This document shows positions 1 through 20,331 of a stretch of 39,428 nucleotides of DNA, piece by piece (position 1 is the stretch's first letter; each line of letters starts with the position of its first letter). Source of the DNA: Rhodospirillales bacterium (GTDB lineage Bacteria > Pseudomonadota > Alphaproteobacteria > Bin95); the NCBI GenBank assembly GCA_038143065.1, contig JAYQLI010000046.1, positions 1-39,428 on the forward strand, given 5' to 3'. The position numbers and the translations under genes were made by a program. The notes beneath the pieces were generated by a model, which saw only the letters and a list, made by a program, of their open reading frames with translations, was not told the origin of the DNA and made no database searches.

Positions 1-17
1 ACTTCTAAAAGTAGGCT

Positions 18-140
18 GCCCCCGGGCACCACTTCCGAAAGTCAACCTGTTGAATAGCTTCACGTTTTCTAATGATTTATAAGAAGGTGTGAATTTTCAC
101 TTCAGAAGTTGCACTTTAGATAAAGACAAACACGTCATTA
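18..140 (+). repeat. Inverted att-like site: tRNA-Phe 3' core GCCCCCGGGCACCA (18-31) plus arm; inverted copy of ~1880-2000
   Basis: 18-69 matches the reverse complement of 1948-2000 with 2 mismatches and 1 indel; weaker similarity (AAGAAGGTGTG, ACTTTAGA-TAAAG) continues to ~140. Confidence 0.9.
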
Positions 141-167
141 TCATCAACTTAACCTGCCCCCTATTAT

Positions 168-243
168 ATTTATAGTGAAGACGCTTTTGTCTCCAACGAC
201 AGTTTCTTAATGTCTTATTAATTTATAGTGAAGACGCTTTTGT
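168..243 (+). repeat. Perfect 23-bp direct repeat ATTTATAGTGAAGACGCTTTTGT (168-190 and 221-243)
   Basis: Read directly from sequence; lies upstream of the Cys-rich ORF. Confidence 0.9.
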
Positions 244-279
244 TTGTCTGAACTTTCGGGGGTCAACCCCGGATTTTCA

Positions 280-760
280 ATGACAGATAAACATTGCCCA
301 AAGTGTGGGATGGCTTTCTGTGGTCGCTCCAACAAAAAGTTTTGTTCAAGCAAATGCAGAAAACTATTCTCACAACAAACTATAAGAGCAACAACCCCCG
401 TAAATTCAAAAAATAGTAAGTGTAAGAAGAGAGAGCAGTATGAGTTGTTTGATACAGCCCTGCGCCTTGCCGAAATACTATATGCTTTACCTCCAAGTGA
501 ACGCCTTAGTTTCATGGAACGCCTCATCTTGATTTAATGGCGAGAAGACGGTGAGCATCCAAGCTAAAACAAATATTAACAATGCCAACTTTGTTAAATG
601 CTAACCGTAAAAGTAAATCACTATACTGGCGTCGCGCGCCAGCCAATCACCGTACAATTTCGCAAGCAGCAAACAACTATTGTAAACGCTTTTGAAACGG
701 AATGTAATATTTGTCGTGAATAATACAGATTATGAACCACACACTGGCGAGGTCATTTAA
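280..760 (+). CDS. Hypothetical protein with N-terminal Cys4 zinc-finger-like motif (frameshifted)
   Basis: MTDKHCPKCGMAFCGRSNKKFCSSKCR (CxxC...CxxxC); the ORF stops at 537 but plausible coding text continues in other frames (KQILTMPTLLNANRK...YCKRF; NVIFVVNNTDYEPHTGEVI*) to TAA 758-760, converging on the integrase stop. Confidence 0.6.
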
Positions 761-1931
761 ACAATTTTGTGCATCCACTTACTGAGCACCCCTAGTTGGT
801 AGCCGTGGCCATATTGGCTGCCAATACCTTTATTCACCCAGCCACCTAGTTGATTTACGTGTCAACTGGACACTCTACCTCCTCAAACGGTCTCTAAAGC
901 TGTGCCTCTGGAGAATGCACTGAATAACGTCTTCAAATTCATTTTGCTTGAGCCATTTGTTCATCGCAGCACTTGCAGAGTTCCCATCAGTTCGGTCATG
1001 TTTATTATATCTGCTTATCAGATATTCACGGTTGCGATTTTTACCGGGTAATCTTGTGGCGGCCCAAAGGGAATCTCCAACAAGTGGAATAGAACGTGCA
1101 CTAGAGGCTGTTTTAAGGCGCCTGTGAGCATTTGGTTGGACAATTACATGCGGATACTCATGAACTAAAACTAGGTCTCTGTGGCGCAAGCCTACAGCCT
1201 CTGAAAGGCGCATGCCCGTATCGCAGATAAGAGCTAAAATATGTCTAAGTTCATCATCATATTGATGGCATATTTGCTTTAGACGCAGCAAATCAACAGA
1301 CGTAAAACCGTTTCTACGTACAGAGCCGATGGAAATATCAATGAAAACACCAGATAGTGGATTTGGTTTGTCTATCCCCAGTTCAGAAAATGCTATGTTG
1401 ATGATGGACTTAGCATTACCAAACACACGACCAATGCTGGGACCTTTAAGTCCTCTGGATACAAGATAATCACGGAACAGAATAGCATCTGTCTTCTGTA
1501 TCTTACCTATTGTTTTCTCACCAATTGCTTCTGATAGATATTTTGTAGTTCTCTCAGCAGCGCGATGAAATGTATCTGGACGCCCTGCCCCTTTCTGCTT
1601 CAAATAAATTTGTTTTGCTTGCTCTAATGTTATGTCAGCATGGGACTCCTCTACACCATCGCCGTACAACATAGGTATCTCAGCGGGAAATAAATTTAAG
1701 GCAAATTTCTCACCCCGCCGTACTCTTAAAGCTGACCAATATTGATCAAGCTGCAGCGTTAATGACTGTGCTAAGCTGTGCGCAATCTTTACACTCTTTG
1801 TCTTAAGCGAAAACACTACTTTTTGTCTTGGATAGTGACGTTCAAGGTCTTTTGGAACGCGACGTTCATAGTAATAAACGCCATCGCACGTACGTATGCT
1901 TTACTCTAAAGTCCTTCAAAAATTCCCACAC
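757..1931 (-). CDS. Tyrosine recombinase/integrase with DUF6538-like N-terminal domain (frameshifted near both ends)
   Basis: Core ORF 875-1816 has DTGMRLSEAVGL and RHSFRDRLR; the upstream frame gives GVYYYERRVPKDL (DUF6538-like) after GTG 1931; the downstream frame gives NQLGGWVNKGIGSQYGHGY...KIV* with the likely catalytic Tyr. Confidence 0.88.
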
Positions 1932-1986
1932 CTTCTTGTAACCACAGGAAAACGTGAAGTTATTCAACAGGTTGACTTTCGGAAAT

Positions 1987-2031: not shown

Positions 2032-2195
2032 AGAGACGGAAATAAATAATTATATGAAAACAGTGACTTGTAGCTATATTATATTAGTGTGTGCTTAAAG
2101 TGTGTATTTGATATTGTCTGAGGTTTAGATCAGAGAAACTTTGTGTCGATAATCAATGGCAGGACACAGTATTTGGCAAAGACTTGAGCCATACA
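2007..2195 (+). repeat. att arm type A, copy 1 (degenerate direct repeat of 20048-20228)
   Basis: Shares GAACCACCGACACG..ATTTTCAATAGA, AATAAATAATTA-ATGAA-ACAGT, AAAGTGTGT-TTTGATATT, TGTGTC and GGACA with the 20 kb copy. Confidence 0.85.
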
Positions 2196-2252
2196 AGTGA
2201 CAGTTGAATGCGCAGGCGTAATACTTCGATGTTCAGCGGTATTTCCAATAAT

Positions 2253-3131
2253 TCATATTCGCTTCGTAATCCAATCGGGGTTATTAATGAAGAGCTGCAA
2301 TACGCCTGAGCATCGTGACCTGCAAACATACCGTCTTGGGTGACTAGAACAGTGCGCCAACCATTCGTGCGGCGGCGCTAATAATGTCGGTGGCGGCGTA
2401 TCACCGATCATAGCAATGCGATTTGGAAGAATGCCGGCCAGCGACACCTCAGCCAGCGTGTAAATCTCTGCGAATGGTTTACCGAAAAACTGAATTTCGT
2501 ACTTCATTTGGTCAAGTAGCAAATGCCCAAAATATCCGGCTCTTGCGAAAAGCCGTTTTCGCGCGGGCGGCAATGTCGGCATTGGCAATTACCAATGGTC
2601 GCGGGTTATCGCGCAGCGAACGTTCAAAGCGCTTGACGCGGACGCCGACCACTCCGCGGACGACAAAAACAAGAAACCTTCCGCTTGATCATAGAGTAAC
2701 TGATCATCACCCAATCGTGATGTCTTGGTGGGAATGTCACTAAGATCATCGTTTATCGCAGCGATGCAGCCAAATGTCCGCGCATCCAAACCAATCAATG
2801 CAGCATCCAATAGTAATGATCTCTTCAAATTCAATCTTTATACCAAGACGCTTAAATTTAAGACCGCGTCCTCATGCTTATAGCTTGCCGCATTAGACAA
2901 GATGCGAATTGCGCAGCCTCGCGCGCGCAATTCATCAAGACGCTCCGCCGCTCCCGGGATTGGGGTTTCGCCAACATTTAGGACACCGGAAAGCATCAAA
3001 CACAAAGGCATCTATTTGATCTGTGATATCCAAAAGCGAATTGATGGAATTTATGCTTTGCGCAAACGTCGCCGTGGGCAAGCGATCCTGACGGACTGAT
3101 AACGATCAAAGATTTCCTGGACTGTTAACAT
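2253..3131 (-). CDS. HAD-superfamily class IIA hydrolase (NagD-like), frameshifted
   Basis: Pieces across frames: MLTVQEIFDRYQSVR, AFVFDAFGVLNVGETPIPGA (motif I), ILSNAAS, FFGKPFAEIY, IAMIGDT (motif IV), DWITKRI*. Confidence 0.8.
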
Positions 3132-4849
3132 AGGATATGTGACTTTCAAATGTTCGGCCTGGCACTTTTTTATTTTCTGGCTTTCGTTCTGCGGACAGTC
3201 GTGTCGACAGAAGATCGCCAGAGCGCTCTGCAATTGGTTGACCTATTGTTGCAAATGCAGCGTTGATCGTTTTGAGCGTCCGCAATGTGTCTTGGTGGAT
3301 GTGGCTTGTTTCAAAGCTGGCAGGGATATTTTCTGCGCAACCGCACGAGATGTCGTTCTTGTAGCATTTGCTCTGCTTTGCGGACCTTGTCTTTGGTATG
3401 AAGCAGTTGGCGTGTTGCGTCTGGTTCACCCGTCATTAATACGCTTAAGGCAAGCTGTGTATTGCTCAGAATGCGGTCGTGAAAATCTTCAAGATCCGAC
3501 CATCCATCTTCCGAAAATCCCAACCCATCAGAATTTAGCCGCTCAGCGTTCATAACAAGACTCTGTGAAATCGCACTGGCTGCAGTTTCTAAATTTAACG
3601 CGATTGACGCCAGTTCATTAGCTTTGTTCTGTTCAGTCTCTGATAAATCTTTGTGATTTAACCCAGCTAGGAATCCTTTAATGTCCGAATGCACAGTGCT
3701 GACGTCTTCAGACTTTTTGATGATAGCTTTTGCTGCATGAGCATCCCAGTTTTGGAATAAACCCATCGACGTACGCAGCATGACCTCGATTGCCTCTCCC
3801 ATCTTCATTATTTCGCGTGCGGCGCATGGTAGAGCGCGCGATGGCAGGTGAAGCGTTGACGGATCAAGGGCAGTGCTGTGTGACAGTGTGTTAATCTTAT
3901 CTTTGCGTTCAGGCGTCAGCTTAAGCGTAGCATCCGCAATCAAGCCCAAGAAAGGCACACAGACAAGCGCCAACCCGATATTGAACACCAAATGTAGGTT
4001 GATAATCTGTTGCGCTGCCTCGGTGCCCAGCCAGCTTAAGATTCCGAAGCTTTTTGACAAAATCCCGAGGACCAGCGGCAGCACCTCCGCCACGCAGCAC
4101 CAAGTTTATAATGACTACGCGTCGTGCGGTCAAAGAGGCGTTCAGCGTGAGCACATAGGCTAATATCGCAGCACCTCCATTTGCCCCCAGAACCATGGCA
4201 GCCGCCCCGCTTGCCGGCAAAAGCCCTTGCCCTGTGAGAGTGACAAAGAACAGAACCGCTGCGACCGACGAATGCACAGCCCATGCAAATAACCCGCCAA
4301 TTAAAAATGACGATAAGATCGCCAGCCAAATAGCCCATGACATATGCCGTTGCGGTGCTTTCAATAAGTGGAGCAGTTGTAGCACGGAGCATATCAAGCG
4401 AGACTAAGACAAGTCCTAACCCGATCAGGATGCGTCCAGATTGGCGGATTTCATTGCGTGAACTGCGCAAGAATAAGATAACACCACACAGCAAAAAAAG
4501 TGGGATCAAAAATTCTTGGCGGATCAGCAAAATCTGGGATACGATAGCAGAACCGGATGTCGGCACCAAGTAATATCGCTGTTCCCGCCAACAATCCAAC
4601 GCCACCTTTTGTTGCAAAATTCGACAACAAAACAGCCACCGCCGTGGCACTTTGTAAGCATAATGCGGCTATCACACCACTAATCAGGGCTTGCAGTCTG
4701 TTTGCATTAGATCGACGCAGAAAGGCGCGTAGGTGCACCGAGAATGCTCGCTCGACCCCCGTGCGCAACAAGCGGACCGCCCAGATCAAAAGTGCAGCGG
4801 CACCCGCGATATGCAGCGCGAACAAAATGATGCTTGAATCTACCATCAA
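3106..4849 (-). CDS. Na/Pi cotransporter family protein with PhoU-like C-terminus (YjbB-like), frameshifted
   Basis: ORFs 4451-4849 (LQSATAVAVL, LLGADI), 4036-4650, 3921-4397 (HSSVAAVL, VLGAN), 3311-4093 and 3106-3429 (ETSHIHQDTLRTLKTIN) assemble into one gene. Confidence 0.85.
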
Positions 4850-4853
4850 TCAA

Positions 4854-5663
4854 TCATTTGTCTGGGTAGAACAGGTATGGACCAGGGTAATCCCCCACAG
4901 GAATATAATGACTGGTGATGACGCCACGTATTTCGTACAGCATAAAGCCACCCGGTTCTTTGGTTAAACAATTTGGCGCAGCTTCTCGCAAATCCATTGT
5001 GACAGCATGGGATACACCTGGTGCGATCTGACAGATAACGTTACCAAAAGGAGCAACAATATTGCGGTGAACATGTCCGCAGGTCAGGCGCAGCTCTCCG
5101 GTGTAGCTAGACAAAATCGCCTTCAGCTCTTTGCTGTGGCGCAGATTTTGAACGTCCATCTTATCGATGCCAGTCAAAATTGGCGGGTGGTGAGTCATCA
5201 CGATGGTTGGCTTACCGCCGTTGGCCTCCAGTTTTTTCGATAAAAATGACAATGTCTCATCGCTTAAATGGCCATGGGCTGCCTCTGCAACGCTACTGTC
5301 CAACCCGATTACGACCAGGTCATCAAAGTGTGCGTCCCAATTGATAGGACCAACGGTTGGCATCCACGGCTGGTCAGCGAAACATTCCCGCATAACTTCG
5401 ATGTCGTCATGATTGCCTGGGATGACGCGGTACGCCAAATTGAGAGGCTCCATAAGTGCCCGAAACCGTTCATATTCTTCGACCGTACCAAAGTCGGTAA
5501 GGTCACCTGAGACAAAGACCATATCAATAGGGCCAATCATTGGCAGGCAGCGGTTAATGGTTTCGATGCAATTGGACAATCCTTCAGCGGTATCGACTTG
5601 GCCGTAGGCCATTTGGCCGTACGGAACGATATGCGGATCTGAAATTTGGATGATTCGAGTCAT
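4854..5663 (-). CDS. Metallophosphoesterase/phosphodiesterase (CpdA/GpdQ-like)
   Basis: Motifs ISDPH, SGDLTD, PGNHD, HHPP, CGHVH; intact 269 aa. Confidence 0.92.
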   Translation of the reverse strand: MTRIIQISDPHIVPYGQMAYGQVDTAEGLSNCIETINRCLPMIGPIDMVFVSGDLTDFGTVEEYERFRALMEPLNLAYRVIPGNHDDIEVMRECFADQPWMPTVGPINWDAHFDDLVVIGLDSSVAEAAHGHLSDETLSFLSKKLEANGGKPTIVMTHHPPILTGIDKMDVQNLRHSKELKAILSSYTGELRLTCGHVHRNIVAPFGNVICQIAPGVSHAVTMDLREAAPNCLTKEPGGFMLYEIRGVITSHYIPVGDYPGPYLFYPDK

Positions 5664-6694
5664 GCAACATCTACCTCTTGTGGAAGCAGCATTAGGGTTT
5701 CCGGCTTGATCGCGACATTGATCATGTCGCCCACCTTCGGTGCGTTCTGCCCAGCATGGATTGAAGCGATGGTATCAGGTGTGATGCCGGAAATGCCAAT
5801 CTTGTAGTGGGTACCCAGAAACGTCACAGTTTCAACCTTACCCTCAAGGAGCCATCGTCTCGGATGCAAACATCTTCAGCGCGCACGAACACGGTTTGAC
5901 CTTCCGCCACGCGCAGGCAAGGTTAACGCGCCACCATCAAGGTACAATGTTGTGCCATCGGCCTTGCCGCGCAGCGACATCGCATTGCCTACAAACCCTG
6001 CTACGAAGGGCGATTTTGGATTGCGGTAAAGTTCTTCTGGCGTGCCGGTTTGTAAAACGCGACCTTGGCACATAACAGCGACGCGATCAGCGATGGCCAT
6101 CGCTTCATCTTGGTCATGGGTTACGAATATCGCAGTTATATCGAATTCGCGTAGCAGCACCGCTAATTCTTCACGCAAGGTTCCGCGCAAAAGATGCGTC
6201 CAGCGCCGATAACGGTTCATCCAGCAACAACATTCTGGGTCGTGGTGCGATCGCACGCGCAAGGGCAACGCGCTGGCGCTGTCCACCAGAAAGCGCCGTA
6301 ATCGCGCGAGCCGCGAATGGTTGAAGCTGACACATCTCCAAGACTTCGGTGACGCGGGCCTCGATCTCGGACTTAGGTAGTTGTTGCATTTTCAGCCCGT
6401 AGCCGATGTTGGCACGCACAGACATGTTTGGAAACAGGGCGTAGGATTGGAACACCATACCGACTTGCCGGCGCTCAACCGGCAGTGGAGTCACATTGTC
6501 ATTGTCAAACCAGATTTCACTTCCTGCGTCGGGTGTCTCCAAACCCGCAATGATGCGCAACAAGGTAGTTTTACCGCAGCCTGATGGGCAACAGCGAGAC
6601 AATCTCGCCCTTTCCAACTGACAGATCAGTGGGTAACAGCGCTTTGGTGCCATCGGGGGTAGGTTTTGGCAGTATGAGTCAGTCGTAAGGTCAT
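5660..6694 (-). CDS. ABC transporter ATP-binding protein (PotA/FbpC-like), frameshifted
   Basis: PSGCGKTT Walker [34 protein letters not shown]-like tail; ATG 6694 overlaps the permease stop. Confidence 0.9.
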
Positions 6695-7467
6695 TGTGTA
6701 ATCCTTTGAGCGCGTGCCGAAGCCCACTGCATGGCCATCAAGAGCGGAACAATCAGTATGAAAAAAACAAGAGTGTAAGCTGAGGCGATTTCTAGCCGCA
6801 TTGAAGCATAGCTGTCGGCAAGACCGACGGGCAGCGTTTTTAGGTACGGCGTATGCAACATCCAGGTAAGGTTGAACTCACCAATAGACAACGTGACAAC
6901 GGTTAGCGATCCCGCCAAAATGCCGGGCATAGCATTAGGCACCACAATGTCTCGGAACCGCTGCCAAGGTGAGGCACCAAGCGAAGCGGCCCCCTCTTCA
7001 AGTGTTTTGAGATCAATAGAGGCCAGGACCGCAAGAATGGACCTTACCATGAAAGGTAATGTGTACAGTACGTGCCCGACAAGTATAAATGTCCAGGATG
7101 CACGGAACCCTTTCATCGAACCATAGAGTTGCAACAACGCCAAGGCGAGCGCCAAACCTGGGATCGCAAGTGGCAATGAGATGAATTCCTCCAGCAGCCG
7201 CGACAACCATCCAGGGTGGCGGGCAAGACCGTATGCAGCGGGCAGTCCGATAATTAATGTGCAGACCAAACAGGCGATAGCCAACCACATGGATAGGAAA
7301 ATACTGTTTGCATAAAGCTCCCATACTTCGATGACCCATTTAAATGTCAAACCGGATGATATGCCTTTAAAATAGTTTGCCGTCAGACCCGCGAGAACTG
7401 ACATGATAATGGGCAGGAAAAGGAATGCGCAGGCCAGCAGCGTGACGGCAAGTTGCATTATCTTCAC
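6691..7467 (-). CDS. ABC transporter permease (PotC-like)
   Basis: Hydrophobic 258 aa with EAA motif [11 protein letters not shown]; true start may be slightly upstream. Confidence 0.9.
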
Positions 7468-7482
7468 TTTGATTTGAACATG

Positions 7483-8286
7483 TCAGCCACCTCCAGCCAC
7501 AGTTGAACCTGACAAGGAGCGCGCAATCAGCAATAAGATCCATGTGATAATGCCCAAAACAATGGACAACGCAGAGGCCATCGCGATGTTCGCGGAAAGA
7601 GTAAATTCGGTGTAAATAACCATAGGAATAACATCAATATCGGTAGCAAGTGTGAAGGCGGTTCCAAAAGCGCCCATCGCAGTAGCAAAAGCAATCGCAC
7701 CCGAAGCAATTAGCGAGGGCATTAGACCGGGTATGATAACATCCATCACAACCCGATAGGGTGTCGCCCCCATTGTGCGGGCGGCTTCCTCAAGAGAGGG
7801 GTCAAGTTTTTCCGCTGCGGCCATCACCGTGAGCAAGACACGCGGAATTGAGAAATAGAGATACCCAAGAAACAAGCCAATTGCAGAATAAGCAAATACA
7901 ACATGTCCAGGGGTCAATTGGTTCACCAGCCCTTGGCGACCACCCAGTAGGATAATCAGAAAGCCTATTACAACACCTGGAAACGCTAAGGGTAAGGTAA
8001 GGACCGACAGAACTGTGCCTCGACCTGCAAACCGATTGCGTACTAAGAACATGCCCGCAGTTGTAGATACAGCAAGGGCTGCAAAGGTGGTGGCCAGAGA
8101 CACCAGAACTGTCAAAACAAGCGTGTTCAAATAACGTGGTTTGCGCAGAATATCGAGGTAAACTGCCCACCCAGCGCTACCTTCCCCGGATACCATAAAC
8201 AGACGGATCAGCGGTAGCGCCAAAAACGCTATGGCAAAGATGAGAAGTGGCGTCAGGCACGCCAATATAAAATTGCGATCTGTCAT
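7483..8286 (-). CDS. ABC transporter permease (PotB-like)
   Basis: EAA motif LEEAARTMGA; likely start MTDRNF. Confidence 0.9.
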   Translation of the reverse strand: MTDRNFILACLTPLLIFAIAFLALPLIRLFMVSGEGSAGWAVYLDILRKPRYLNTLVLTVLVSLATTFAALAVSTTAGMFLVRNRFAGRGTVLSVLTLPLAFPGVVIGFLIILLGGRQGLVNQLTPGHVVFAYSAIGLFLGYLYFSIPRVLLTVMAAAEKLDPSLEEAARTMGATPYRVVMDVIIPGLMPSLIASGAIAFATAMGAFGTAFTLATDIDVIPMVIYTEFTLSANIAMASALSIVLGIITWILLLIARSLSGSTVAGGG

Positions 8287-8339
8287 ACGAATTCCTCGTA
8301 GGGTCACGCTGACGCAACCCTACTGGTTAAAACATGTGA

Positions 8340-9334
8340 TTAGTCAACTTCGGACAAGTAACGCTCACCAAAGCCAGCTTGTACTTGTTCCATCTTTGCA
8401 TAATCGACTGCAACAGCACGCTCATAGTCGCTTGCGGGCAGAAATTTGGACGCTACGTCTGCTGGCAATTCAACCGGACGCGCTGGCTGAAGATAGGCAT
8501 TTGTCCAGATTGCTTGACCCTTATCTGATAAGATAAAGTCCAGCACCTTTTTGCCAAGCTCAGGATTTGGACCGTTGTTTACTAAGCTCATAACGTAAGG
8601 CACCCTAACCGAGCCTTCGCAGGGCATCACAAACTCAAAGTTACCATCTTCTTCGTACTTTCCGCGATAAGCGTTAAAGTCATAGTCAAATAGGATTGGG
8701 ATTTCGCCTGATACCACACGCGCATAGGACGTTTGCTTTGGAACAATTGGCGAATTTTCACCCAACTCTTTAAAATATTTGATTGCTGGGTCAAAGTTGT
8801 CCAGATCGCCACCAAAAGCCATGTTCACTGCAACTGCGCCGGCGTAGCCAACAAATGCAGATGACGGGTCAAGATATCCAACCATGCCGCGATATTCAGG
8901 TTTTTTCAGATCCGCAAAGCACTGAGGTACTTCCGCTCCACCAAGCGCATCAACGTTCACAAAAAACCGAGCGAGCCATAGTGGATTGCAAACCACTTGC
9001 CGTCCGGATCCTTTAGCCCGTCAGGAATTTCATCAAATTTTGCTGGTTTGTAAGCGGCCGCCACGCCTTCATTGCCGGCCTTAATACCTGTCGTCACCCC
9101 ATAATAGGCAACATCTGCTATAGGGTTATCTTTTTCCGCCAAGAGTTGGCTCAAGGTCTGGCCAGAATTCTTGTTGTCATGGGGCATCTGAACATCGATT
9201 TCTTTGTCGATCGCTTCAAGCATTGATGCCCAATCCGCCCATTGTGGCGGGCAGTTATAACACACAGCATCTTCGGCCAGCGCAGGTGCTGCGAATGCTA
9301 TTGTCAAAAAGGCTGTTGCAAGTTTATGTTTCAT
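8340..9334 (-). CDS. ABC substrate-binding protein (Fe3+/2-AEP/thiamine-binding family), one frameshift ~8960
   Basis: Signal peptide MKHKLATAFLTIAFAAPALA; LLAEKDNPIADV, YLDPSSAFVG, DFILSDKGQ; ORFs 8957-9334 and 8340-8996. Confidence 0.88.
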
Positions 9335-10443: not shown

Positions 10444-10461
10444 ATTGGAAACGTTTCCAAT
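10444..10461. promoter_or_regulatory. LacI-family operator (perfect 18-bp palindrome ATTGGAAACGTTTCCAAT)
   Basis: Central CG and GAAACGTTTC core typical of LacI operators; just upstream of the LacI start. Confidence 0.85.
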
Positions 10462-11048: not shown

Positions 11049-11215
11049 TTAGAACCTAGCCTTGCGTCGAATTTGCAACAGATAAATACAGGCCACTAGC
11101 AAGAGTGCAGGAATGTAAAACAACTCTTTCGGAGGGCAATCCGCGGCCTGTTCAATTTCGACAACTTCCCAATCCCAATTAATGCCCAGCTGCTCGGCAG
11201 GACCACCAAGGGGGC
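11049..11215 (-). pseudogene. C-terminal remnant of a TRAP 4TM/12TM fused permease (DUF3394-like tail)
   Basis: GGPAEQLGINWDWEVVEIEQAADCPPKELFYIPALLLVACIYLLQIRRK resembles the end of TAXI-TRAP fusion permeases; the rest of the gene is absent. Confidence 0.6.
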
Positions 11216-11238
11216 ATAAAGGTCCGATTACACCATAA

Positions 11239-12237
11239 TTATTGGGGCTTTGCGGATTTGTAATGCCCAAAATTTTTGGTGTTGCGCCCCATAATGTATT
11301 CGCCTGCGGAAATGATATCTTCGGCACTGCCTGACGCACCAAAGTCGCGCGGGTCAATTGGGGTTTCGCTTGTGGGATCACAAAAAACGGGGGATGGAAT
11401 ACCGACTAGTTGGGTTGCGATTGATCACGCGGTGCACTGTCGATGTCAGGCGCCCCCTGTCCAACGTTCCAGTAGATCGCCGATGTTGCATACCAAAGTT
11501 CCCTGAACTGGAGGTGCTTCAATCCAGTCGCCTGCGGGATTGCGCACCTGCAACCCGCCCTGCATATCCTGCATCAAGACTGTCAAAACGCCAAAATCCG
11601 TGTGCGCCGCAGCACCCAACCGATTTTGAGCAATATCCTGTGCGTTCATCGGTGGATAATACACCAACTGCCCCCGCCCTAGCGGATCCACATAAGCATG
11701 ATCAAAAAATGTTTTTGACTGCCCCAAACCATGCGCCAAGGCCGATAGAACCCGCCGCCCCAATGACATGACCTGCTGATAATAAGGCCAAATCCCATCC
11801 TTTTAAAAACGCGGCCTCATGTTCTGGCCATTGATTTGGATGCACCAAGGGCGGGCGTTTTTCAGGATTGGCAGGCATATCTGCGCCCTCCCAGCCCCAA
11901 AAACACCTCTTTCGCATCGTGCGTTGCGGCACCCTCTAATTGCGCAAGGCCCGATTGCATCCACCCGCGTTGAAGTGTGTTCACGGACACTTGGCCCTTT
12001 ACGTCAGCGGGTAAATCAAAAAACCGACGGGATGCCTCAAATGCCTGATCCATCACATCTGCGGAAATCCCATGATCGCTTAAATAGAAAAACCCAACAC
12101 GATGCGCCGTCTCAACCAGATCACGCGCGACGCGTTCAAACCCTTTTATCAATTTCCAAACCCGACAAACTGATGATTGGTATTTCTTCAAAATCGGTTT
12201 TCTGTGCGGGGGCGTAGCGATCAATATCCATGGTCAT
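11239..12237 (-). CDS. 2-oxoglutarate/Fe(II) dioxygenase, isopenicillin N synthase family, frameshifted
   Basis: VGFFYLSDHGI, RRFFDLP, AHTDFGVLTVLMQD..GGLQV, VCNIGDLLERWT, STVHRV...RYSIPVF across frames. Confidence 0.88.
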
Positions 12238-12910
12238 TCCTATAAATATTGGGGAGCAATCGATTTGGGTGCGATATGTTCAATCGCCGATAAAATATCG
12301 ACAATACGCACATTTCTGTTGCGCCGCATTTGGGGTTTATAGGGGGCAAATTTGTACATTCCAATATCACTGTTTCCGTCGTTGGCGTCATGGCTGCAGC
12401 GAAATCATGAATGACAGCATCCTGCATGTCAGATGGATCAAACCGATCTGGAACATCCCCTTCTATCCGTTGGCGCAGGGGATTATCAAGGCGCAAGCCC
12501 ACAATGCGAAAATCGCCGGCGCCATAGGGATGAGGGAAATGTGCGTCAACCAATCGCTCTGCATCAAAGGTCAGCACACTACTGCGTTCGCAACCTTTCG
12601 GCACCTTCAAATCGTTTAGCATGTTGAGAACCGAGGCAATGACAGGTTTATGTGTCGCGCTTTGTAATTGATCCTGAAACGGTGACAGAAACCCACAAGA
12701 GGTCACGATAATATCCCCATTTGCCTTCTCGATCGCCTTTAGGAACGGTTCAAGATCAATTTGATCTGGCTGATCGCTGACAACATTGGCAACACTGGCG
12801 CGCGGCACGCGAATAATTTCAGGGGCGTTTACATAACTATCCACACATCCAACGTCGCCAGGCACGCGGCAAAACCGCGTGTCCAGTTGCAAAACGCTGA
12901 CACGCGCCAT
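12221..12910 (-). CDS. Aspartate/glutamate racemase-superfamily protein
   Basis: LQLDTRF..VPGDVG, IVTSCGFL, ILECTNLPP (two-Cys racemase-fold motifs); probable frameshift near the 3' end. Confidence 0.75.
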   Translation of the reverse strand: MARVSVLQLDTRFCRVPGDVGCVDSYVNAPEIIRVPRASVANVVSDQPDQIDLEPFLKAIEKANGDIIVTSCGFLSPFQDQLQSATHKPVIASVLNMLNDLKVPKGCERSSVLTFDAERLVDAHFPHPYGAGDFRIVGLRLDNPLRQRIEGDVPDRFDPSDMQDAVIHDFAAAMTPTTETVILECTNLPPINPKCGATEMCVLSIFYRRLNISHPNRLLPNIYRNDHGY

Positions 12911-12913
12911 GCC

Positions 12914-14218
12914 CTAGTTCCGCTGACGAATGTTTTCAGGCAGCCATGTCGCGAGTTCAGGGAAAATCACAAGGATCACCACCATCAACAACATCAAACC
13001 CACCATAGGAATGGCAGTTTTTGCAATATAGCCGATTTCATGTTTGGTCATCCCTTGCAAAACAAACAGGTTGACCCCAATCGGTGGTGTCACCTGCGCT
13101 GTTTCGATCACCACAACCAAAAAGATGCCAAACCAAATTACATCAATCCCCGCCGCACGGATCATGGGTTCCACAATGGCCATCGTCAAAACGACCGAGG
13201 ATAGGCCATCCATAAACATACCCAAGATCAGATAAAAGACCGTCAGCACCGCAATCAATGCGACAGGCGAAAGGTTATACCCCTCAATCAATTCGGCCAT
13301 GGCGCGCGGCAATCCTGTGAACCCCATGGATAAGGACAAAAACGCAGCCCCCATCAGGATCAGCGCAATCATCGCAGATGTCCGCGTTGCGCCCATCAGG
13401 CTTTGGGAAAAGCTGGCCCAATTCAACGACCCTTGCGCCGCAGACAAAACCAAGGCACCGATCACACCCACGGCCGCCGCCTCGGTCGCAGTAGCATAGC
13501 CAAGATACATGGATCCTATCACCACACAGACCAATCCCATTACAGGCAGCAAAAACACGCTTTCACGGATCATTTTAAATAAGGACATTTTTGGTTCAGG
13601 CTCTGGGCGCGATCCCCCGCCAAAGAAGTGCCAAAACACAATATAGGCCATGAAAAGACCGGCAAGCACCAAACCAGGGAAAACACCCGCCATAAACAAT
13701 TTGGTAATGCTTTCATTAATGGTCACGCCATAGACAATCAGGGTCAGCGATGGTGGGATCATCAAACCCAATGTCGCAGCCCCGCCAACGTGCCAATGAT
13801 CATATGTTCGGGATATCCACGCGAACGCAATTCAGGGATCGACATTTTTCCAACCATATTCAATGTGGCAGCAGATGATCCCGAAACGGCCGCAAAAATC
13901 GTACATCCCGCAATATTTGTATGCAGCAATCCACCCGGCAAAAACCGCATCCATGGGGCAAGGCCGCGAAACATATCCTGGGACAGGCGCGTTCGATATA
14001 GGATTTCACCCATCCAGATGAACAAAGGCAGCGCGGTTAATGTCCAACTGCTTGCCCTGTCCAGATGGTTGTGATCATTGCATCCCTGCAGGGCGCGATG
14101 TGAAGAGTTCCATACCAACCCAGGCCACCCCCATCAGCGCCAAACCAACCCAAACCGAACTGCCCAAAAGCGCGAAAAGAACGAATAAGAAAACAATGAT
14201 TGCGTACACTTCGGTCAT
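12914..14218 (-). CDS. dctM: TRAP transporter large permease (DctM), frameshifted
   Basis: LTALPLFIWMGEIL, FAAVSGSSAAT, LMIPPSLTLIVYG, TATEAAAVG, TPPIGVNLFV. Confidence 0.9.
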
Positions 14219-14922
14219 TCCACTTCCTCCCGTACAATTTGGGTCTGTCCGATGATCAACAAGCGGTACAAATAATCCCAAAGCGCGATCGCCAATAAAA
14301 TCGTTCCAAAGGACATCGCCAATTGCGGCAACCAAACGGGGGTAAACACCATTTTATCAGATGTCTTTGCCCATGTATCGGCCCAATACCAAGGCCATTG
14401 TCCCATCATCGCAAATATTGACAAAACCCATTCTGGAACCTGATCCAATCCTTGGGTCCGATCATTCAGCATTTCAGAAAAATAATTTGTTTTAACGGCA
14501 TATCGGGCAAAATAGGTTGCCGTTATTGCCGAAAGCAGCATCGCAACCGCATCCAACCAAAATTTCAAAAATCATTCATATTTAGGAAAATTGAAACGCG
14601 AATGTGCGATCCGCGTGTCAGGGCATAGCCATCGCAAACGACGTGCAGGCCATGGCATATCCTGCAAATTCGGTGCCCCTGGAAAAATCGTATTCGTCCA
14701 CCGCGCCACCATCTGTCCAACGATCAGCAATAGAATGATCACCATGAACATCGCCGCAATCACGCCGCTGACCACATAAATGCGATCCAAAATGCGCCAG
14801 ATCGGGCGCAAAATGCGGTGGGCCATGTGACGGGATGTCAAACAGAACGCAGCAATCAATGTGGGGAAAATAAACAGCCAGAACCACAATGGCAGGCCGA
14901 TATAAATTGGCCAGTCGTTCAT
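14215..14922 (-). CDS. dctQ: TRAP transporter small permease (DctQ), frameshifted
   Basis: Hydrophobic pieces, GTEFAGY, TPVWLPQLAM; lies between dctP and dctM. Confidence 0.8.
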
Positions 14923-14936
14923 GCCCTACCTTCCTG

Positions 14937-14965
14937 AAAAGAGCCCGCCATGACAGCGGGGCTTG
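14937..14965 (-). terminator. Hairpin with U-tract after dctP
   Basis: Minus strand AAGCCCCGCTGTCATGGCGGGCTCTTTT. Confidence 0.6.
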
Positions 14966-14977
14966 GATTTATTTTGA

Positions 14978-15960
14978 TTAGTTTGCGTTATACGCGTCGA
15001 TGATGGCCTGACCATCTGCGCCAACATCAGCCAGCCACGCAGCTGTCATTTTCGCACCAATCGCCTGTAATTCCGCAAGGAATTCTGGGCCTGCATCTTC
15101 AACCGACATGCCATTTGCGGCCAGCTGTTCAAAGTACCAATTTGCCAGCTCAGCTGATTTTGCAGAACATGCAGCGCCTGTTTCATTTGCGGCTTTTTGA
15201 AGGGCGGCTTGCATGTCGCCACTTAGGCCTTCCCAAACACCTTTGTTCACCATCACATAGTTGCGTGGTAGCCATGCGTTCACTTTGTAATAATGGGTTA
15301 GGTGTTCCCAAACTTTGCGGTCATACCCCGTTGATCCAGATGATATAAAGGATCCTGCAACCCCTGTTACAAGGCTTGGGACAATTCTGCCGCTTCGACC
15401 TGAACAGGGACCATGCCCAACTCTTCTGCAAATGTTGCTGTGGCCGAATTGTATGAACGGAATTTGATCCCTTGGGTATCTTTGGACGATGCGACCGCCT
15501 TTTTGAAATAGAACCCCTGCCCGGGCCACGGACATGTATAAAGCGCGACCAAGTTCAAATCGGCCAGTTGCGCGTTTACTTTATCTTTGGCGGCGGCCCA
15601 TAGTTTGTTGTTCTCTTCATATGTCGTTGCCAAGAAAGGCAAGTTATCCCACCCAAGCAAAGGCGCCTCATTCGCGTGCGCGGACATAAAGCGTTCGCCA
15701 ATTGGGGCCTGACCCGTTTGAATGGCGCGTTTGATTTCGCCACCCTTGAACAATGAACCACCCGGATGCACCGTAATGTCGATATCACCGTTTGTGTATT
15801 CACGCACCTTATCTGCAAAAACGACCCCCATTTCCGAATGGAAATTCGTTGCCGCATACGCCATGGGCATATCCCATTTTTCCGCGCTGGCTGTTTGTGT
15901 AGACACCGCAATGGCCGCAATGCCCATTGCCAGTGTTGTCATTTTCTTAAGTGCTTTCAT
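14978..15960 (-). CDS. dctP: TRAP substrate-binding protein (resembles Bordetella DctP6/DctP7 type), one frameshift ~15375
   Basis: Signal peptide; KWDMPMAY, EIKRAIQTGQAPIGE, PWPGQG, KFRSY, SSGSTG, AWLPRN. Confidence 0.88.
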
Positions 15961-15993
15961 TTTAATCTCCCTGATTTGTTGCACATTTCTTCA

Positions 15994-17228
15994 TTATGAA
16001 AATCGTTGTGGTTCAAACGGGCGTAAATCGGCATTGGCCGGTTTTCCCGCAATCATATCGGCCACCATGCGCCCCGTTTTCGGACCACCTGTCAGACCAA
16101 TGTGATGATGTCCAAAGGCGGTATAAATGCCCGAATTTTTAACCTGACCCAAAAGTGGCAGGCTATCTGTTGGCGCGGGGCGAAAGCCCAGCCATTCCTC
16201 ATCACTTTCGTATTCGAACTTTGGAAATATCTCTTTCACTTTTTTGCGCAACAATAGCAGCGGCGCTTTGGACTTTTTGGGGCTTAGGCCCCCGAATTCA
16301 ACAACGCCTGCACAACGCACACCTTGGTTCATGGCCGTGGCCACGAATTTGCCTGCGGCCAACATCATGGGATTGCGAGGTTTTTGCGTGGGGTTTTTAA
16401 ATACGATGTGATAGCCCCGCTCAGCCTCAAGCGGGACCTTAAGACCCAGTTTTTCAATCAAGGAGCGGGACCAAATTCCGCTGGACACCACAGCGCGATC
16501 ACAATGAAACCGCCCTGCTGTGGTATCAACAGATGTAATCGTTTCATTTTCAATCGTGAAATCTGTCACCTCGGCCTGAACAAAGGTGCCCCCATTTCGA
16601 TCAGAACTTTGACCAGTTCCTGAACGTATTCAGCTGGGTTCAAAATGAAACCATGGTTTTTCAAAACCGCAAGCAGCTTTGTGTTGGACCCTAAAATAGG
16701 TTCCTCTTCCCGAACGGCGTCCCCTTCGATTATATCAGGAACAAATCCCGCCTCGGCCCGCAATTGCCACGTGAACTTATCCTTTTCAAAGGCCTGACGA
16801 TCACTATAGGCAAAACTATACTTGCTTTCACAGACCCATTGGGCTGCTGATGTCCCGGCACTTAGCGCCTGATGTTGTTCAAGGCTGTCGCCAACGATTT
16901 GCGTTAATCCCTGACTGATGCGGCGCGTATCATCGGTATTTGAATGCCCCAGATACTGCACCAACCATGGCACCAATTTCGGCAGATATCGCCAGCGTAA
17001 GAACAGCGGGAAATTAGGATCACGCAACATTTTGGGTGCATTTTTGACCAACCCCGGACCTGTGACAGGGACAACCGAACAACTGGCCAAAATACATCCG
17101 TTGCCGTAGGACGCGCCCATTCCAGGCGTGCCCTTGTCGATTAGTGTCACGTCAAACCCTGCGCGGCGCAACCAAAGGCCCGTTGAAACCCCGATGATGC
17201 CCGCGCCAATGACAACCACATGTGTCAT
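15994..17228 (-). CDS. FAD-dependent D-amino-acid dehydrogenase (DadA-like), one frameshift ~16580
   Basis: VIGAGIIG Rossmann motif, GASYGNG, ERGYH, WLGFRPAPTDSLPLLG, FGHHHIGLTGGPKTG. Confidence 0.88.
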
Positions 17229-17303
17229 GACCGTCTCCAACTCTCTTGAGATTAGGTTGACACCAAGTAAATATCATTTCAATTATTATATTATCAAACA
17301 AAC

Positions 17304-17318
17304 ATCATTTAAAGTGAT
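17304..17318. promoter_or_regulatory. Putative LysR box ATCA-N7-TGAT (T-N11-A)
   Basis: Dyad in the AT-rich divergent intergenic region between the dehydrogenase and LysR genes. Confidence 0.5.
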
Positions 17319-17322
17319 ATAG

Positions 17323-18267
17323 ATGAAGCTCCGATCCTGACAGTTGCAGGCGTTCCACGCGATTATCCAAACTGGCACAGTTGTGGGGGCGGCAGAAATG
17401 TTGGGGATTTCACAACCTGGGGTGTCCAACCTGATTTCGCAGTTGGAACGACAGACGGGTCTGAAACTGTTTGAAAGGATGCACGGACGCCTAACTGCCA
17501 CGCCCGAGGCCGCAATTATCCATCGCAATGTGGATGCGATTGTGCGTGGGTTGCAACAGGTCACACAAACCGTTGTGGATTTGCAAAACAAACAGACGGG
17601 TAATTTGCAAATCGCCTCTCAACACTCAATGTCATTTGGCGTGATGCCCCGCATCATTGGTGATTTCAAAAAAATCTATCCCGACATCAGTATTTCTTTT
17701 CAATCCCAATACAGCGCGAAAATTCAGGAATGGGTCGAAGCAGGCATTTTCGAAATTGGGATCTGCGAACTGCCAAAACTTTATGACACGCTCACCTATT
17801 ATCCCATTCAAATCCCAACCAAGATCGTAATGCATCATGAAAATCCATTAGGGGAACATCAGGTTTTAACGCCTGAATTATTGCGACATGAAAACTTTAT
17901 CCTAATGGGTCCCGATCACACGACACAGACACAATTGTTTCAGGCCTTTGAGCAGGCTGGAGTGAAATTGAAATCCTCAATCCATTCTCACCTGTTCAAA
18001 AACCTACTATCATTTGTAAAAGAGGATATGGGAGTGGCCCTGGTGGATGATTTTGCCATCGAAAATGATCTCGACCCCCGCTTTATTAGTCGTGATTTTA
18101 CACCAATAATTTACACCAACATGGCTATAATAACATCAAACACTAGGCCACTTTCAAAACTTGCGAACGAATTCCTGCAGCTGCTTCGGCAAAAATTGGC
18201 ATGTTACTTTCCAAAAGCTGAAACCAAAGCTCCCGATACTACAGAAAGCAAGCTTTATAAAGACTAA
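17323..18267 (+). CDS. LysR-family transcriptional regulator
   Basis: HTH QLQAFHAIIQTGTVVGAAEMLGISQPGVSNLISQLE..LFER; ATG 17323 gives MKLR-S-stop-QLQAF (in-frame TGA at 17338-17340); open from 17344. Confidence 0.88.
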
Positions 18268-18342
18268 GTTGAGCGCTTACACTTTGTGAAAAGGTATATT
18301 TGAAGAAGTCACTGGCCCTTTGCCCGACAGCTAAAAATTAAT

Positions 18343-19267
18343 CTATTCAGTTTTGTAGAGCCAACGCATAAATATTGGCGTTAGGTACATCGGTAATTGA
18401 TAACAACCGAGGAATATGAGAAATTCATCGCTGTTCGAAACAGTAACAGCGACTATAAAGACTGCTACATTTCTATTTCCAGCGATAATTGCCATGGATG
18501 TGTTTTGCGGGTTAGCACCGGTAGTTCGAAACAAGATATATGTGATTACTTGCAGACCATAATTAAGGCCGAATGCAAGAACCAACCAATTAAGTAACTT
18601 TTTTGGGATCTTCGTTAAGCGTTGGAACGATAGCACTCATTAACCCAACAACTATTACAGCCAGCAAAAGCGTAGAAACACCATCTAGCGCCATTTTTTG
18701 GTCAGGATTCACCTGAGGTATTAGAACTGCTCTGATAATAAACCCAATCGCAATCGCCAAACCCATAGTCGCGGTAAGTTCGATAGATAACCAAATTATA
18801 TCGTACAACGAACCAGCAGCAGGTAAGAACCATAGGACAGGAATTATAGTAATAGGTAAACAACACGTTCCAATGACCAAAACTCGAAAAGTAGGTTCAG
18901 GCTGGTATCCGAGCATTATAGCAAAATTTGGCGCTCCAGTTATTGAAGGTGCAGCCAATACCAAAGTAATCACCATTGCAACAGCGGTATTACCTAATCC
19001 AAAAGCTATTAACATAGCTACAACGGTCAGGGGGAAAATGACTTGAAAAGTAAAGACTATTAACAGAGTTTCTTTTATGTGATCCACTGCGTCTTTCACG
19101 GCTGTAAATCCAATTCGAAGGGACGTGAAACCGAGTAACAGAATTACCAATTCGCTTAACCACGGGCGCATTGCCAAAGCAATATCTGGCAGCAACATTC
19201 CCGCGATCAAACCAAGCACTAAAACGAACCGTCCGTATTCAGCAATAAATTTAAAACTAGCAATCAA
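18343..19267 (-). CDS. Membrane transporter, bile acid:sodium symporter/Acr3-like, frameshifted ~18600
   Basis: Multi-TM protein with LAAPSITGAP and AGNRNVAVF motifs; ORFs 18590-19351 and 18343-18636; start uncertain. Confidence 0.65.
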
Positions 19268-19423
19268 ATGGACACTCAAATCTATAAATTTCGTTAAAGT
19301 TATCACAACAGTGCAATTGTTTCTACGTAAAGCAAAGACCATAAAATACATAGTTCATTGCAAACAACTGTGTTCTTTCACTAGGTTCGAGACACGGTGT
19401 CGAACCCCGGAATCTCTATTCTC

Positions 19424-19613
19424 AAACACATGAAAAAGTGTGTGTTTGGTGTGTTTTTGAATCCACACGCATAGCGTTAGTGCACAAAAATTAAGTCATT
19501 GATATTATTTTGAAAAGTGGTGCCCGGGGGCGCAACCGATACTTTTCTAAAATATCATTTATTTATAGATGGTTAGAATTCCGAAAATATTAAGCGGTCC
19601 TAAAAGTGTGTCC
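19424..19613 (+). repeat. att site type B, copy 2; tRNA-Phe 3' core at 19518-19531
   Basis: Direct repeat of 10681-10871; IHF consensus on minus strand at 19492-19504. Confidence 0.92.
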
Positions 19614-19812
19614 AATATTTTGTGTTTTAATCAAACACTGTGTCTACAAGCCTGACCACAGGACATTACTGTTCAAAACGCCAAGTAGTTTGAGTAATAA
19701 ACCTTTTGACAAAAAGCAAAATTTCTCTTGCTCATGTTCTATTACAGACGGAAGCCGTTACATTACTTGGTAATCTCTGATTAATGACTTAACGCGTTTG
19801 ATTTCAGGCAAG
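19602..19812 (+). repeat. Cassette-terminal sequence repeated at 20137-20331
   Basis: Shared blocks ATCAAACACTGTGTCT, TGACAAAAAGCAAAAT and TTAATGACTnAACGCGTTTGATTTCAGGCAAG (19781-19812 vs 20300-20331, 31/32). Confidence 0.85.
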
Positions 19813-20047
19813 CTGTAAGTAACACTACAGAAAAGCATCCATACCACTCATCTCAAAATTGATTTATGAAGTTCGGAGTGATTGCTACTGGTGTAGCGCA
19901 GTTATTCCCACGCCTATTTTGGTAGTTCTTAGATTAGCTTGCACCTAGCGTGAGTCCCAGATGCAATCGCGGAATGCGCCATCTAGCGTCCTCTAATGCA
20001 TATTCGTAATTTGATATTTGCATCCAAATTCCATCACCGATAAAGTG

Positions 20048-20331
20048 GAACCACCGACACGAGGATTTTCAATAGAAATGGTAATAAATAATTAAATGAA
20101 TACAGTAAGTTGTATGGATATAAAATGAATGTGCGCAAAAGTGTGTTTTTGATATTTTGTTGGTTTGGATCAAACACTGTGTCTTCAACCAATAGCGGGA
20201 CAGAGTGTTTGGTGCCACTTAGTTACACAAAAACCTGACAAAAAGCAAAATCTCAGAGCTGATTTTAAAATAGCGGAAGGGTACAGTATTGGTCATGGCT
20301 TAATGACTGAACGCGTTTGATTTCAGGCAAG
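20048..20331 (+). repeat. att arm type A, copy 2, with tRNA-Phe anticodon/T-arm fragment (20048-20073)
   Basis: Reverse complement ATTGAAAATCCTCGTGTCGGTGGTTC; the arm matches 2007-2195 and the tail matches 19602-19812. Confidence 0.88.

Follow-up and report, generated by a model that had tools for sequence, protein, structure and literature searches.

Integrase-less operon modules between att-like tRNA-Phe junctions in an alphaproteobacterial contig: a probable tandem accretion array

Tandem accretion at tRNA genes is of a general kind already known, described as additive flexible islands, as tycheposon islands and as the accretion of CIMEs (cis-mobilizable elements). As far as the parts of these sources drawn on here go, the additive flexible islands of Alteromonas occupy tRNA hotspots, including tRNA-Phe, and their cassettes are marked by partial tRNA repeats (PMC4898812); the islands of Prochlorococcus arise by serial integration at tRNA genes and contain degenerate remnants (bioRxiv 10.1101/2020.12.28.424599); CIMEs carry attL and attR without integration or transfer genes, lie in tandem at the 3' end of a tRNA gene and are excisable by the integrase of a neighbour (PMC5704250); and the ssrA-linked tandem islands of Dehalococcoides are site-specific at a single small-RNA gene, by a genus-wide mechanism (PMC3146451). 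Here we describe a 39,428-nt stretch of a Rhodospirillales assembly (contig JAYQLI010000046.1), called the window, positions 1-39,428 of which are the entire contig C46 of a 52-contig, 4.63-Mb bin (G000). Its left half is cut by repeats containing pieces of the 3' part of tRNA-Phe into units, named E0 to E4 from left to right. We hold with moderate confidence that window 1-20331 represents the distal portion of an array built by tandem accretion at a tRNA-Phe attachment (att) site, in which E1 and E2, both without an integrase, would be recombinable in trans.

The units are separated by direct, co-oriented repeats of the tRNA 3' part, three of them acceptor-end copies and one an inner-core copy (Table 1). 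The left arm of a junction is called Larm, the tRNA piece the core, and the right arm R1 at junctions A and D or R2 at junctions B and C; left arm, core and right arm come to about 190-275 nt in all. The 14-mer TGGTGCCCGGGGGC, which is the reverse complement of the tRNA 3' end, stands co-oriented at 1987, 10775 and 19518 and inverted at 18-31. It was observed four times against a chance expectation of 0.04, and none of 100 shuffles reached four. The D core sequence was found once in the window, with 0 expected by chance. The initial annotation had described four co-oriented tRNA-Phe 3' fragments (1987, 10775, 19518, 20048), each within one repeated spacer of about 190 bp. Positions and orientation stand, with the reservations that B and C hold 15 nt only and that D is without the acceptor end; the set was not complete, as the inverted copy at 18-31 makes a fifth. 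The repeats are real as well, and they form two families rather than one: B and C are 86.6% alike over 187 nt, with two identical runs of 30 nt in common, and A and D are 76.6% alike over 171 nt. In addition, 19602-19812 and 20137-20331 (inner arm) are 70% alike.

At junctions B and C, the Larm covers about 85 nt (10690-10774 and 19434-19517), and the 15-nt core is contained in 21-22 nt enclosed by an imperfect inverted repeat, of 17 nt at B (halves 10759-10775 and 10797-10813) and 11 nt at C. The arms have sharp edges and hold repeated GTGTGT and GGTCC motifs. Lambda-type att sites span roughly 200-250 nt and have a core with inverted sites for the recombinase and, on either side, arms in which protein-binding motifs are repeated; in these respects the junctions may correspond to such a site. 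Reading the repeats as att-like junctions is supported by their sharp edges and by the unrelated cargo that they flank in this bin and in other genomes. Two further observations concern the layout. A 10-bp palindrome (GGTTCGAGAC / GTGTCGAACC) lies at 19384-19406, about 30 nt left of Larm, and is missing at junction B; the stretch of about 55 nt around it recurs at 12 junction-adjacent places in genomes G041, G042 and G044, as short matches to window 19351-19419. The distance from junction to junction is 8788 nt for E1, 8743 nt for E2 and 8898 nt for one module of G041 (contig C10), others measuring 1.6-25.6 kb; the near-equal spacing is probably a coincidence.

The same junctions recur outside the window. 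Within the bin, copies with varied combinations of Larm, core and R1 were found on at least nine other contigs (C2, C5 with two, C7, C8, C9, C11, C45, C47 and C48). In a scan of genome contigs, an exact 20-mer of Larm matched 58 loci in 34 other assemblies, as counted from their titles. Twenty-nine of these bear the names of Rhodobacteraceae/Paracoccaceae genera or of Alphaproteobacteria, and the carriers include the isolates HIMB11, HTCC2083, Nereida ignava and Pseudopelagicola as well as two closed chromosomes of metagenome-assembled genomes (MAGs). Three are MAGs filed under Flavobacteriales or Ca. Arcticimaribacter, and in two the matches are without a tRNA core. The Flavobacteriales/Ca. 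Arcticimaribacter junction contigs (L033, L036, L056) are 2.0-2.4 kb long; most likely they are mis-binned, and the same caution applies to the bin of the window. An intact tRNA-Phe(GAA) stands about 60 nt upstream of Larm in 20 of the 58 loci; 12 loci are R2-type and 5 R1-type junctions, 12 combine the 45-nt core with another arm, 6 hold no core and 3 are too short to tell. A scan of viral contigs gave one match, without a tRNA core, which was dismissed as chance. Two sequences of the bin, C7:13830-13900 (72 nt) and C5:10245-10298 (54 nt), resemble tRNA-Phe (about 92% to the tRNA of contig C35), have Larm before them and were missed by ARAGORN; they are either pseudo-tRNAs or attL-type ends with errors.

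Alignment of the copies shows where the junctions end. Twelve copies of the R2-type junction, three of them from this bin and nine from loci of other assemblies, are conserved over about 195 nt and have a common end at two GGTCC motifs; beyond the edges of the junction the flanks are unrelated except in two pairs of similar loci. The R1 arm has a likewise sharp edge (Table 1). Copies of different genomes are 80-92% alike, and the DNA left of Larm is mostly unrelated between loci. The 20 loci behind an intact tRNA gene had suggested that Larm is the native chromosomal flank of tRNA-Phe. This was rejected on the many copies per genome and the unrelated left neighbours; it is also contradicted by three array-end junctions, which consist of core and R2 without Larm, and by the absence of Larm at the intact tRNA-Phe of the bin (C35) and in 35 of 36 other genomes of the bin's own family.

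What lies between the junctions is operon-scale cargo, for the most part without an integrase. E1 and E2 measure about 8.7 kb each and hold transporters, among them an ABC importer in E1 and a TRAP transporter in E2, enzymes and a regulator of their own. Neither domain scans of their open reading frames (ORFs) nor searches with PF00589 and DUF6538 found a recombinase, relaxase or conjugation/mobilisation family in them, or a remnant of one. A 253-aa ORF beside junction C was tried as a new recombinase and rejected: it is hydrophobic and transporter-like, is 335 aa long in G044 and has paralogues on C50 and C2. In five other genomes, 6, 13, 3, 15 and 11 junction matches form co-oriented arrays; PF00589 is absent from 10 of the 14 intervals between successive junctions there, which together with E1 and E2 gives 12 of 16 modules, and 0 of 18 DUF6538 matches fall inside the 14 intervals. 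The arrays of HIMB11 and G041 contain 79 ORFs. Two neighbouring ORFs of a single module match Phage_integrase, and all others code for transporters, oxidoreductases and regulators of the LysR, GntR and AraC families. The early claim of integrase-less cartridges bounded by att sites is supported by these counts, together with the sharp edges of the junctions and the unrelated cargo. That each full module is a complete operon holds for its own regulator and for the lack of a recombinase; at least four genes of E1 and at least five of E2 are split as assembled, probably by errors (see below).

The cargo is different in different genomes. The arrays of G041 and HIMB11 have the junctions in common and not the cargo, save one piece of 0.6-0.7 kb. 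This piece is FAD-monooxygenase-like and 91% identical, and it lies left of the array-end junction in HIMB11 and at two places in G041 (L095:1-691, L096:455-1148, L093:3009-3600). A homologue of E2 with intact genes was found in G044, a MAG filed under Rhodobacteraceae, at 84-88% over window 11255-19605. It is bounded on the right by an R2-type junction as in the window and on the left by Larm with the full 45-nt core. Its left neighbour is not E1 but encodes a LysR regulator and a PLP enzyme along with an ABC transporter of the betaine type, and its right neighbour is not E3 but begins with a transketolase-like gene. As far as sequence comparison goes, the occurrence of E2 among other neighbours favours exchangeable units. 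That the site holds different units is seen for E2 in G044, for G041 against HIMB11 and for E4 on contig C44 of the bin, as had been expected of att-bounded slots. Gene order across the junctions is not fixed, the repeats do flank other cargo, and homologous modules are not always accompanied by an integrase. Elsewhere, E1 was seen only as ABC genes 69-72% similar, at another place in G043, and among the listed pieces of public contigs its homology with two long contigs stops at 10522.

The only integrase visible, in E0, is at the left end, as first noted: the window holds one PF00589 and one DUF6538 match, both left of core A. The gene points away from core A and begins at a distance of 102 nt. 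It is flanked by inverted copies of its upstream arm together with the 14-nt core (18-97 and 1919-2000); this inverted bracket could be due to a past inversion between att sites or to two elements that once faced each other. By eye, bases 1-17 bear a loose likeness to an inverted R2 arm. In five Rhodobacteraceae genomes (G041-G045), 13 of 17 DUF6538 integrases stand directly downstream of a tRNA gene (Leu 4, Arg 3, Thr 3, Ser 2, Asn 1), an 18th and weakest match having been left out of the count. This location points to a role of the DUF6538 domain in tRNA-targeting integrases. In the bin there are 22 DUF6538 and 39 PF00589 matches, mostly on small contigs and many of them fragmented, and three DUF6538 genes are no more than 102 nt away from a tRNA-Phe end (on C46, on C5 and at the intact tRNA-Phe of C35). 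At the last of these (locus C35:2571672-2572017), a truncated frame of 114 aa begins 97 nt behind the tRNA. The downstream arm of the C35 tRNA-Phe is also copied on C41, C6 and C34.

An integron comprises the integrase IntI, an attI site and Pc, and collects mostly promoterless single-gene cassettes with attC sites. The array resembles it as a one-sided platform that stacks exchangeable units between recombination sites and needs the integrase in trans. It is not an integron, however: there is no IntI, attI, Pc or attC (no IntI-specific test was made), the junctions are lambda-like and based on a tRNA, and the units, 2-25 kb long, are entire operons that include a regulator (LacI or LysR). To call the locus integron-like and new, as was done at first, was overstated, as tRNA-Phe cassettes, serial integration and CIMEs are already in print. 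In the Alteromonas islands, as here, a tRNA hotspot holds transporters, degradation pathways and sensing functions; cassette number and order vary by strain, and near-identical cassettes occur in different backgrounds. The hosts differ, being here Rhodobacteraceae and an alphaproteobacterial bin, and so does the arm-core-arm junction of 190-275 nt, which is found across genera in two crossover classes; the parts of the Alteromonas descriptions compared contain no such arms and no count of integrase-free cassettes (PMC4898812). Tycheposon islands, in the part of that source covered, have in common with this locus a tyrosine recombinase at tRNAs, older elements pushed inward into the island, partial tRNAs and nutrient-uptake cargo, and fragmented integrases are scattered in them; tycheposons carry integrase and replication modules, whereas E1 and E2 have neither, and the integrase here is of the DUF6538 type (bioRxiv 10.1101/2020.12.28.424599). 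E1 and E2 are like CIMEs in that they have junctions on both sides and that no recombinase or transfer family was found in them. According to the sections drawn on, CIMEs are defined as decayed integrative and conjugative or integrative mobilizable elements (PMC5704250); E1 and E2 show no such remnant, though they may have an old origin of that kind, and integrase-less units are here the majority of the array, unlike CIMEs as described there. The Dehalococcoides islands target tmRNA in the account used (PMC3146451), as against tRNA-Phe here. In the literature searched, with partial coverage and supplements excluded, neither tRNA-Phe arrays in Roseobacters nor a paper naming DUF6538 was found. 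Apparently undescribed in that literature are the junction family itself, its spread over many Rhodobacteraceae genera, the two nested core classes and the predominance of integrase-less operon modules.

The arrangement could have arisen as follows. An incoming element would carry an att site of three parts. Its right arm would measure about 145 nt (R1) or about 80 nt (R2), its core would be identical to the end of tRNA-Phe, over 45 nt in the R1 class and 15 nt in the R2 class, and its left arm would be the Larm of about 85 nt, often with the palindrome before it. Recombination with the tRNA 3' end would restore the tRNA and place the element's own Larm behind it, older elements would be displaced outward, and a complete arm-core-arm junction would remain between neighbours. 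Serial integration with such a site leads one to expect an intact tRNA followed by an element-borne Larm, full junctions between neighbours and a far array end without Larm. Since the tRNA sense is on the minus strand, the intact tRNA would be expected beyond the right end of the contig. The order of arrival would be E0, which bears the integrase at the left end, then E1, E2, E3 (truncated later) and E4. Two crossover classes, of 15 and 45 nt identity, would operate on the same tRNA; as Williams reportedly set out in 2002, tRNA-targeting integrases use different sublocations within the tRNA. Because E1 and E2 retain both arms, a tRNA-Phe-specific tyrosine integrase acting in trans could recombine any two junctions, and the DUF6538-type gene near core A would be one example. 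We infer that site-specific recombination built the array and that E1 and E2 may still be mobile in trans, moved by an integrase of the DUF6538 type.

Several results weigh against this reading. The integrase is disrupted as assembled: it lacks a start in frame, and its C-terminal part is cut off by a frame change or a TAG, one TAG falling inside the PF00589 match. None of the 17 DUF6538 integrases of the five other array-bearing genomes stands at tRNA-Phe, and no cognate integrase was found there. The intact tRNA-Phe is absent from this contig, whose last position is 39428, and ARAGORN detected no tRNA gene anywhere in the window; the sole Rfam match, mir-367 (E=0.22), is due to chance. The sole intact tRNA-Phe of the bin, on the 2.86-Mb contig C35, differs from core A at 3 of 34 aligned positions (91% identity) and has no Larm behind it. 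Only one of 36 other genomes of the bin's own family has the junction (G006, of the same genus, a MAG named "Alphaproteobacteria bacterium"), and in view of this rarity the contig may be mis-binned or the elements foreign. In G006 (contig C81), a 45-nt tRNA-Phe fragment with Larm abuts the apparent C-terminal end of a truncated fliI (flagellar ATPase), with a fliJ-like gene beside it, as seen by eye. Lastly, some features are signs of decay or rearrangement: core D is truncated, E3 is a remnant, a fragment of DUF3394 lies on the left edge of E2, and 18-97 is an inverted copy.

These signs, along with the disrupted integrase and the many broken integrase matches on small contigs, would also be expected if the window were a decayed and immobile tandem island, in which once-autonomous islands have lost their integrases and the genomes differ by deletion and vertical descent. 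The CIME model, in the part of the source drawn on, derives such units by decay (PMC5704250). We regard this as a live but unlikely alternative. No PF00589 or DUF6538 remnant was left in E1, E2 or 10 of 14 other intervals, the integrase-less modules retain complete, sharp-edged arms, and E2 occurs in a second assembly with intact genes, bounded by junctions and among other neighbours. Moreover, most of the apparent pseudogenes here are probably assembly errors.

The split genes were examined in this respect against the contigs of four public runs. At least four genes of E1 and five of E2 are split over adjacent frames, and long-ORF cover of the left half is low (0.49 against 0.88). All four runs carry near-identical module contigs, whose differences from the window are mostly indels: a piece of run X5 has 0 substitutions and 8 gaps in 827 nt and another public piece 5 substitutions and 12 gaps in 2.8 kb, while the E4 flank has 0 gaps in three runs. 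Among the indels listed, the 5 inside E2 all lie in homopolymer runs and each is common to 2-4 of the 4 runs; correcting the listed E2 indels joins the two DAO pieces into one frame of 426 aa. In G044 the E2 homologue is full-length (DAO 415 aa, DctP 335, oxygenase 330, membrane protein 335). For the integrase, 3 of the 4 runs have two extra letters behind 1884. From the homopolymer indels, the DAO fusion, the gap-rich pieces and the intact G044 homologue together, it is likely, if not proven, that most of the splits, and possibly that of the integrase, are consensus errors of a low-coverage long-read assembly; a further 62 indels lie beyond those listed. Pseudogene decay, which the split ORFs and the low ORF cover had suggested, was therefore rejected as the main explanation. 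Bases within ORFs of at least 200 aa amount to 72% on C35 and to 0-50% on most of the 51 small contigs; the poor ORF cover and broken integrases of the small contigs could be due to low-coverage indel errors, to real decay or to mis-binned island DNA.

Modules might also be shuffled without a dedicated integrase. The 30-nt identical runs shared between junctions mean that homologous recombination could do so, which is a further point against an integrase as the mover: junctions of 190-275 nt would serve as portable homology for RecA-dependent crossovers after DNA uptake, and Rhodobacteraceae make gene transfer agents, a possible route of such uptake. The 87% overall likeness of B and C, that of junctions of different genomes (80-92%), the lack of a cognate integrase at tRNA-Phe in five genomes and hybrid arms such as R2 followed by the inner R1 arm at 19533-19812 are all consistent with this. 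However, in the R2 class the tRNA identity ends at the same base, after 15 nt, in 12 of 12 copies; the core lies within an inverted repeat, as expected of a recombinase site; the arms have repeated short motifs and the size of an attP; and an integrase of the tRNA-targeting type stands 102 nt from core A. As an account of the array, homologous recombination alone is a live but rather improbable alternative.

The contigs of the public runs bear on the order of the modules as well. No listed public contig bridges a junction, and E1, E2 and E4 are seen next to one another in this assembly only; nor was an excised circle or empty site found among these contigs. Both results count against the accretion reading. 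Joints such as 10789>20048, 19532>20048 and 19419>10673 had come up as proof of excision or of circles and were rejected as ambiguous, because their sides are only 20-36 nt long, the repeats are multi-copy and the 5 intervening letters just complete the tRNA core. Junction bins were several-fold deeper than modules in all four runs. Contig depth for E1, E2 and the E4 flank was about 5, about 20 and 88 in X5 and 14-18, about 4 and about 4 in X16, which hints that the three parts are not always linked, contig depth not being copy number. Run X1 has no cover on 20344-21000, and nothing was inferred from this gap. The deep junctions, the unbridged joints, the many indel errors of the left half, two 99.56% identical copies of E4 in a bin of 5.5% contamination and the junction contigs in Flavobacteriales-labelled MAGs would fit a chimeric E1-E2-E3-E4 order, with strains or organisms of a strain-mixed bin joined at a high-copy repeat. 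Though a live alternative, this is very improbable: HIMB11, Nereida ignava and a complete MAG chromosome of Roseovarius, among isolates and closed records, carry comparable arrays; a 2.86-Mb contig is suggestive of long reads, which span 200-nt repeats; and the modules with two junction halves each stand even were the order wrong.

Beyond the window, a wider proposal is put forward as tentative, with a modest chance of being right: a tRNA-Phe cassette platform may be common to pelagic Rhodobacteraceae and this bin, its junctions serving as portable sites at which rare, transient integrases of the DUF6538 type capture, excise and reshuffle integrase-less operon cartridges in trans, which would pass from family to family as units running from junction to junction. 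If true, the platform would be in function an operon-scale integron on lambda-like att sites. The Roseobacter group are major consumers of marine organic matter, with large gene differences between strains. The junction sequence gives a handle by which genomes and long-read metagenomes can be scanned, the cassette pool listed and module order and turnover read, and the array-carrying isolates HIMB11 and Nereida ignava can be used to test the movement of integrase-less modules and the integrase responsible. DUF6538 may gain a working role, as the N-terminal domain of integrases directly downstream of tRNA genes. There is also a warning for annotation: the split genes here resemble homopolymer errors, and mis-binning happens readily with island contigs of this kind.

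Table 1. Coordinates of the features in the window (a dot in the strand column: no strand assigned).
Feature	Position	Strand	Basis or remark
Inverted 14-nt copy of tRNA-Phe 3' end	18..31	+	exact match, opposite orientation to the other three
Inverted copy of integrase-proximal arm	32..97	+	window 18-97 vs 2000-1919: 86.7% over 83 nt
Zinc-ribbon-like ORF, 85 aa	280..537	+	DUF2116, E=6e-4, 20.1 bits, under the 26.8 cut-off
Tyrosine integrase with DUF6538 N-terminal domain (E0)	869..1885	-	DUF6538 1724-1885, PF00589 869-1285
Integrase-proximal arm beside core A, without Larm motif	1919..1986	-	sequence comparison
Junction A core: 45-nt 3' half of tRNA-Phe, CCA end to anticodon loop with GAA	1987..2031	-	
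R1 arm, left end of E1	2032..2180	.	about 145 nt past core kept in 10 aligned copies
Module E1 cargo	2181..10680	-	profile matches of ORFs
E1: HAD-like pieces, weak	2256-2834		
E1: Na/Pi cotransporter + PhoU, split	3314-4650		
E1: metallophosphoesterase	4857-5663		
E1: ABC ATPase, split	5879-6653		
E1: two permeases	6694-8307		
E1: solute-binding protein, split	8343-9334		
E1: LacI-family regulator, in 3 pieces	9334-10432		
Junction B left arm (Larm), hairpin 10681-10703	10681..10774	.	repeat comparison
Junction B core: last 15 nt of tRNA-Phe	10775..10789	-	within 21 nt between inverted repeats
R2 arm, left end of E2; two GGTCC motifs at its end	10790..10871	.	kept in 12 aligned copies
Module E2 cargo	10872..19361	-	profile matches of ORFs
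E2: DUF3394 fragment, left edge	11052-11381		
E2: 2OG-Fe(II) oxygenase, split	11449-12224		
E2: Asp/Glu racemase	12224-12910		
E2: TRAP DctM/Q/P, split	12917-15984		
E2: FAD oxidoreductase DAO, split	15997-17240		
E2: LysR regulator, divergent	17344-18264	+	
E2: membrane transporter-like protein, split	18346-19351		
Palindrome-bearing segment (19384-19406)	19362..19423	.	stands before Larm in many other copies
Junction C: Larm 19424-19517, 15-nt core 19518-19532, R2 arm 19533-19601	19424..19601	.	
Remnant E3: R1-like inner arm (19602-19812), then first ~235 nt of the module starting C47 in longer version	19602..20047	.	
Junction D: partial core, T loop to anticodon loop, without acceptor end or Larm	20048..20073	-	
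R1 arm + inner arm, left end of E4	20074..20331	.	98.2% to C47:1-166
Module E4, cut off by contig end	20332..39428	-	MarR on + strand
E4 genes: three sulfatases, FGE, Usp, TctABC, MarR (+), CoA-transferase, two GSTs, SDR			
E4 genes: Rieske, FAH, HgmA, HPPD, SulP (start only)			

The stretch 19533-20047 is a truncated remnant and not a module; on contig C47, the end of the R1 arm stands first, as a 98% copy, followed by other cargo. In E4 all frames are intact, those of the sulfatase, TctABC and homogentisate-pathway genes among them, GC is 52-62%, higher than in the left half, and the visible part holds no integrase; a scan of 20 ORFs in 20389-39428, with one plus-strand regulator among them, showed none that looks split. 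The hgmA gene of E4 is 73-76% identical to that of same-genus genomes as against 65-66% to five Rhodobacteraceae, an ambiguous sign of host affinity. Window 20260-39428 matches C44:51-19220 at 99.56% over 19,171 nt, with 3 gaps and 82 mismatches, and the presence of E4 twice in the bin at this identity indicates two strain variants or a duplication. On C44 the left neighbour of E4 is another one, with a different arm and with phage-like and recombinase fragments, and C46 and C44 break off at the same point, inside the SulP gene.

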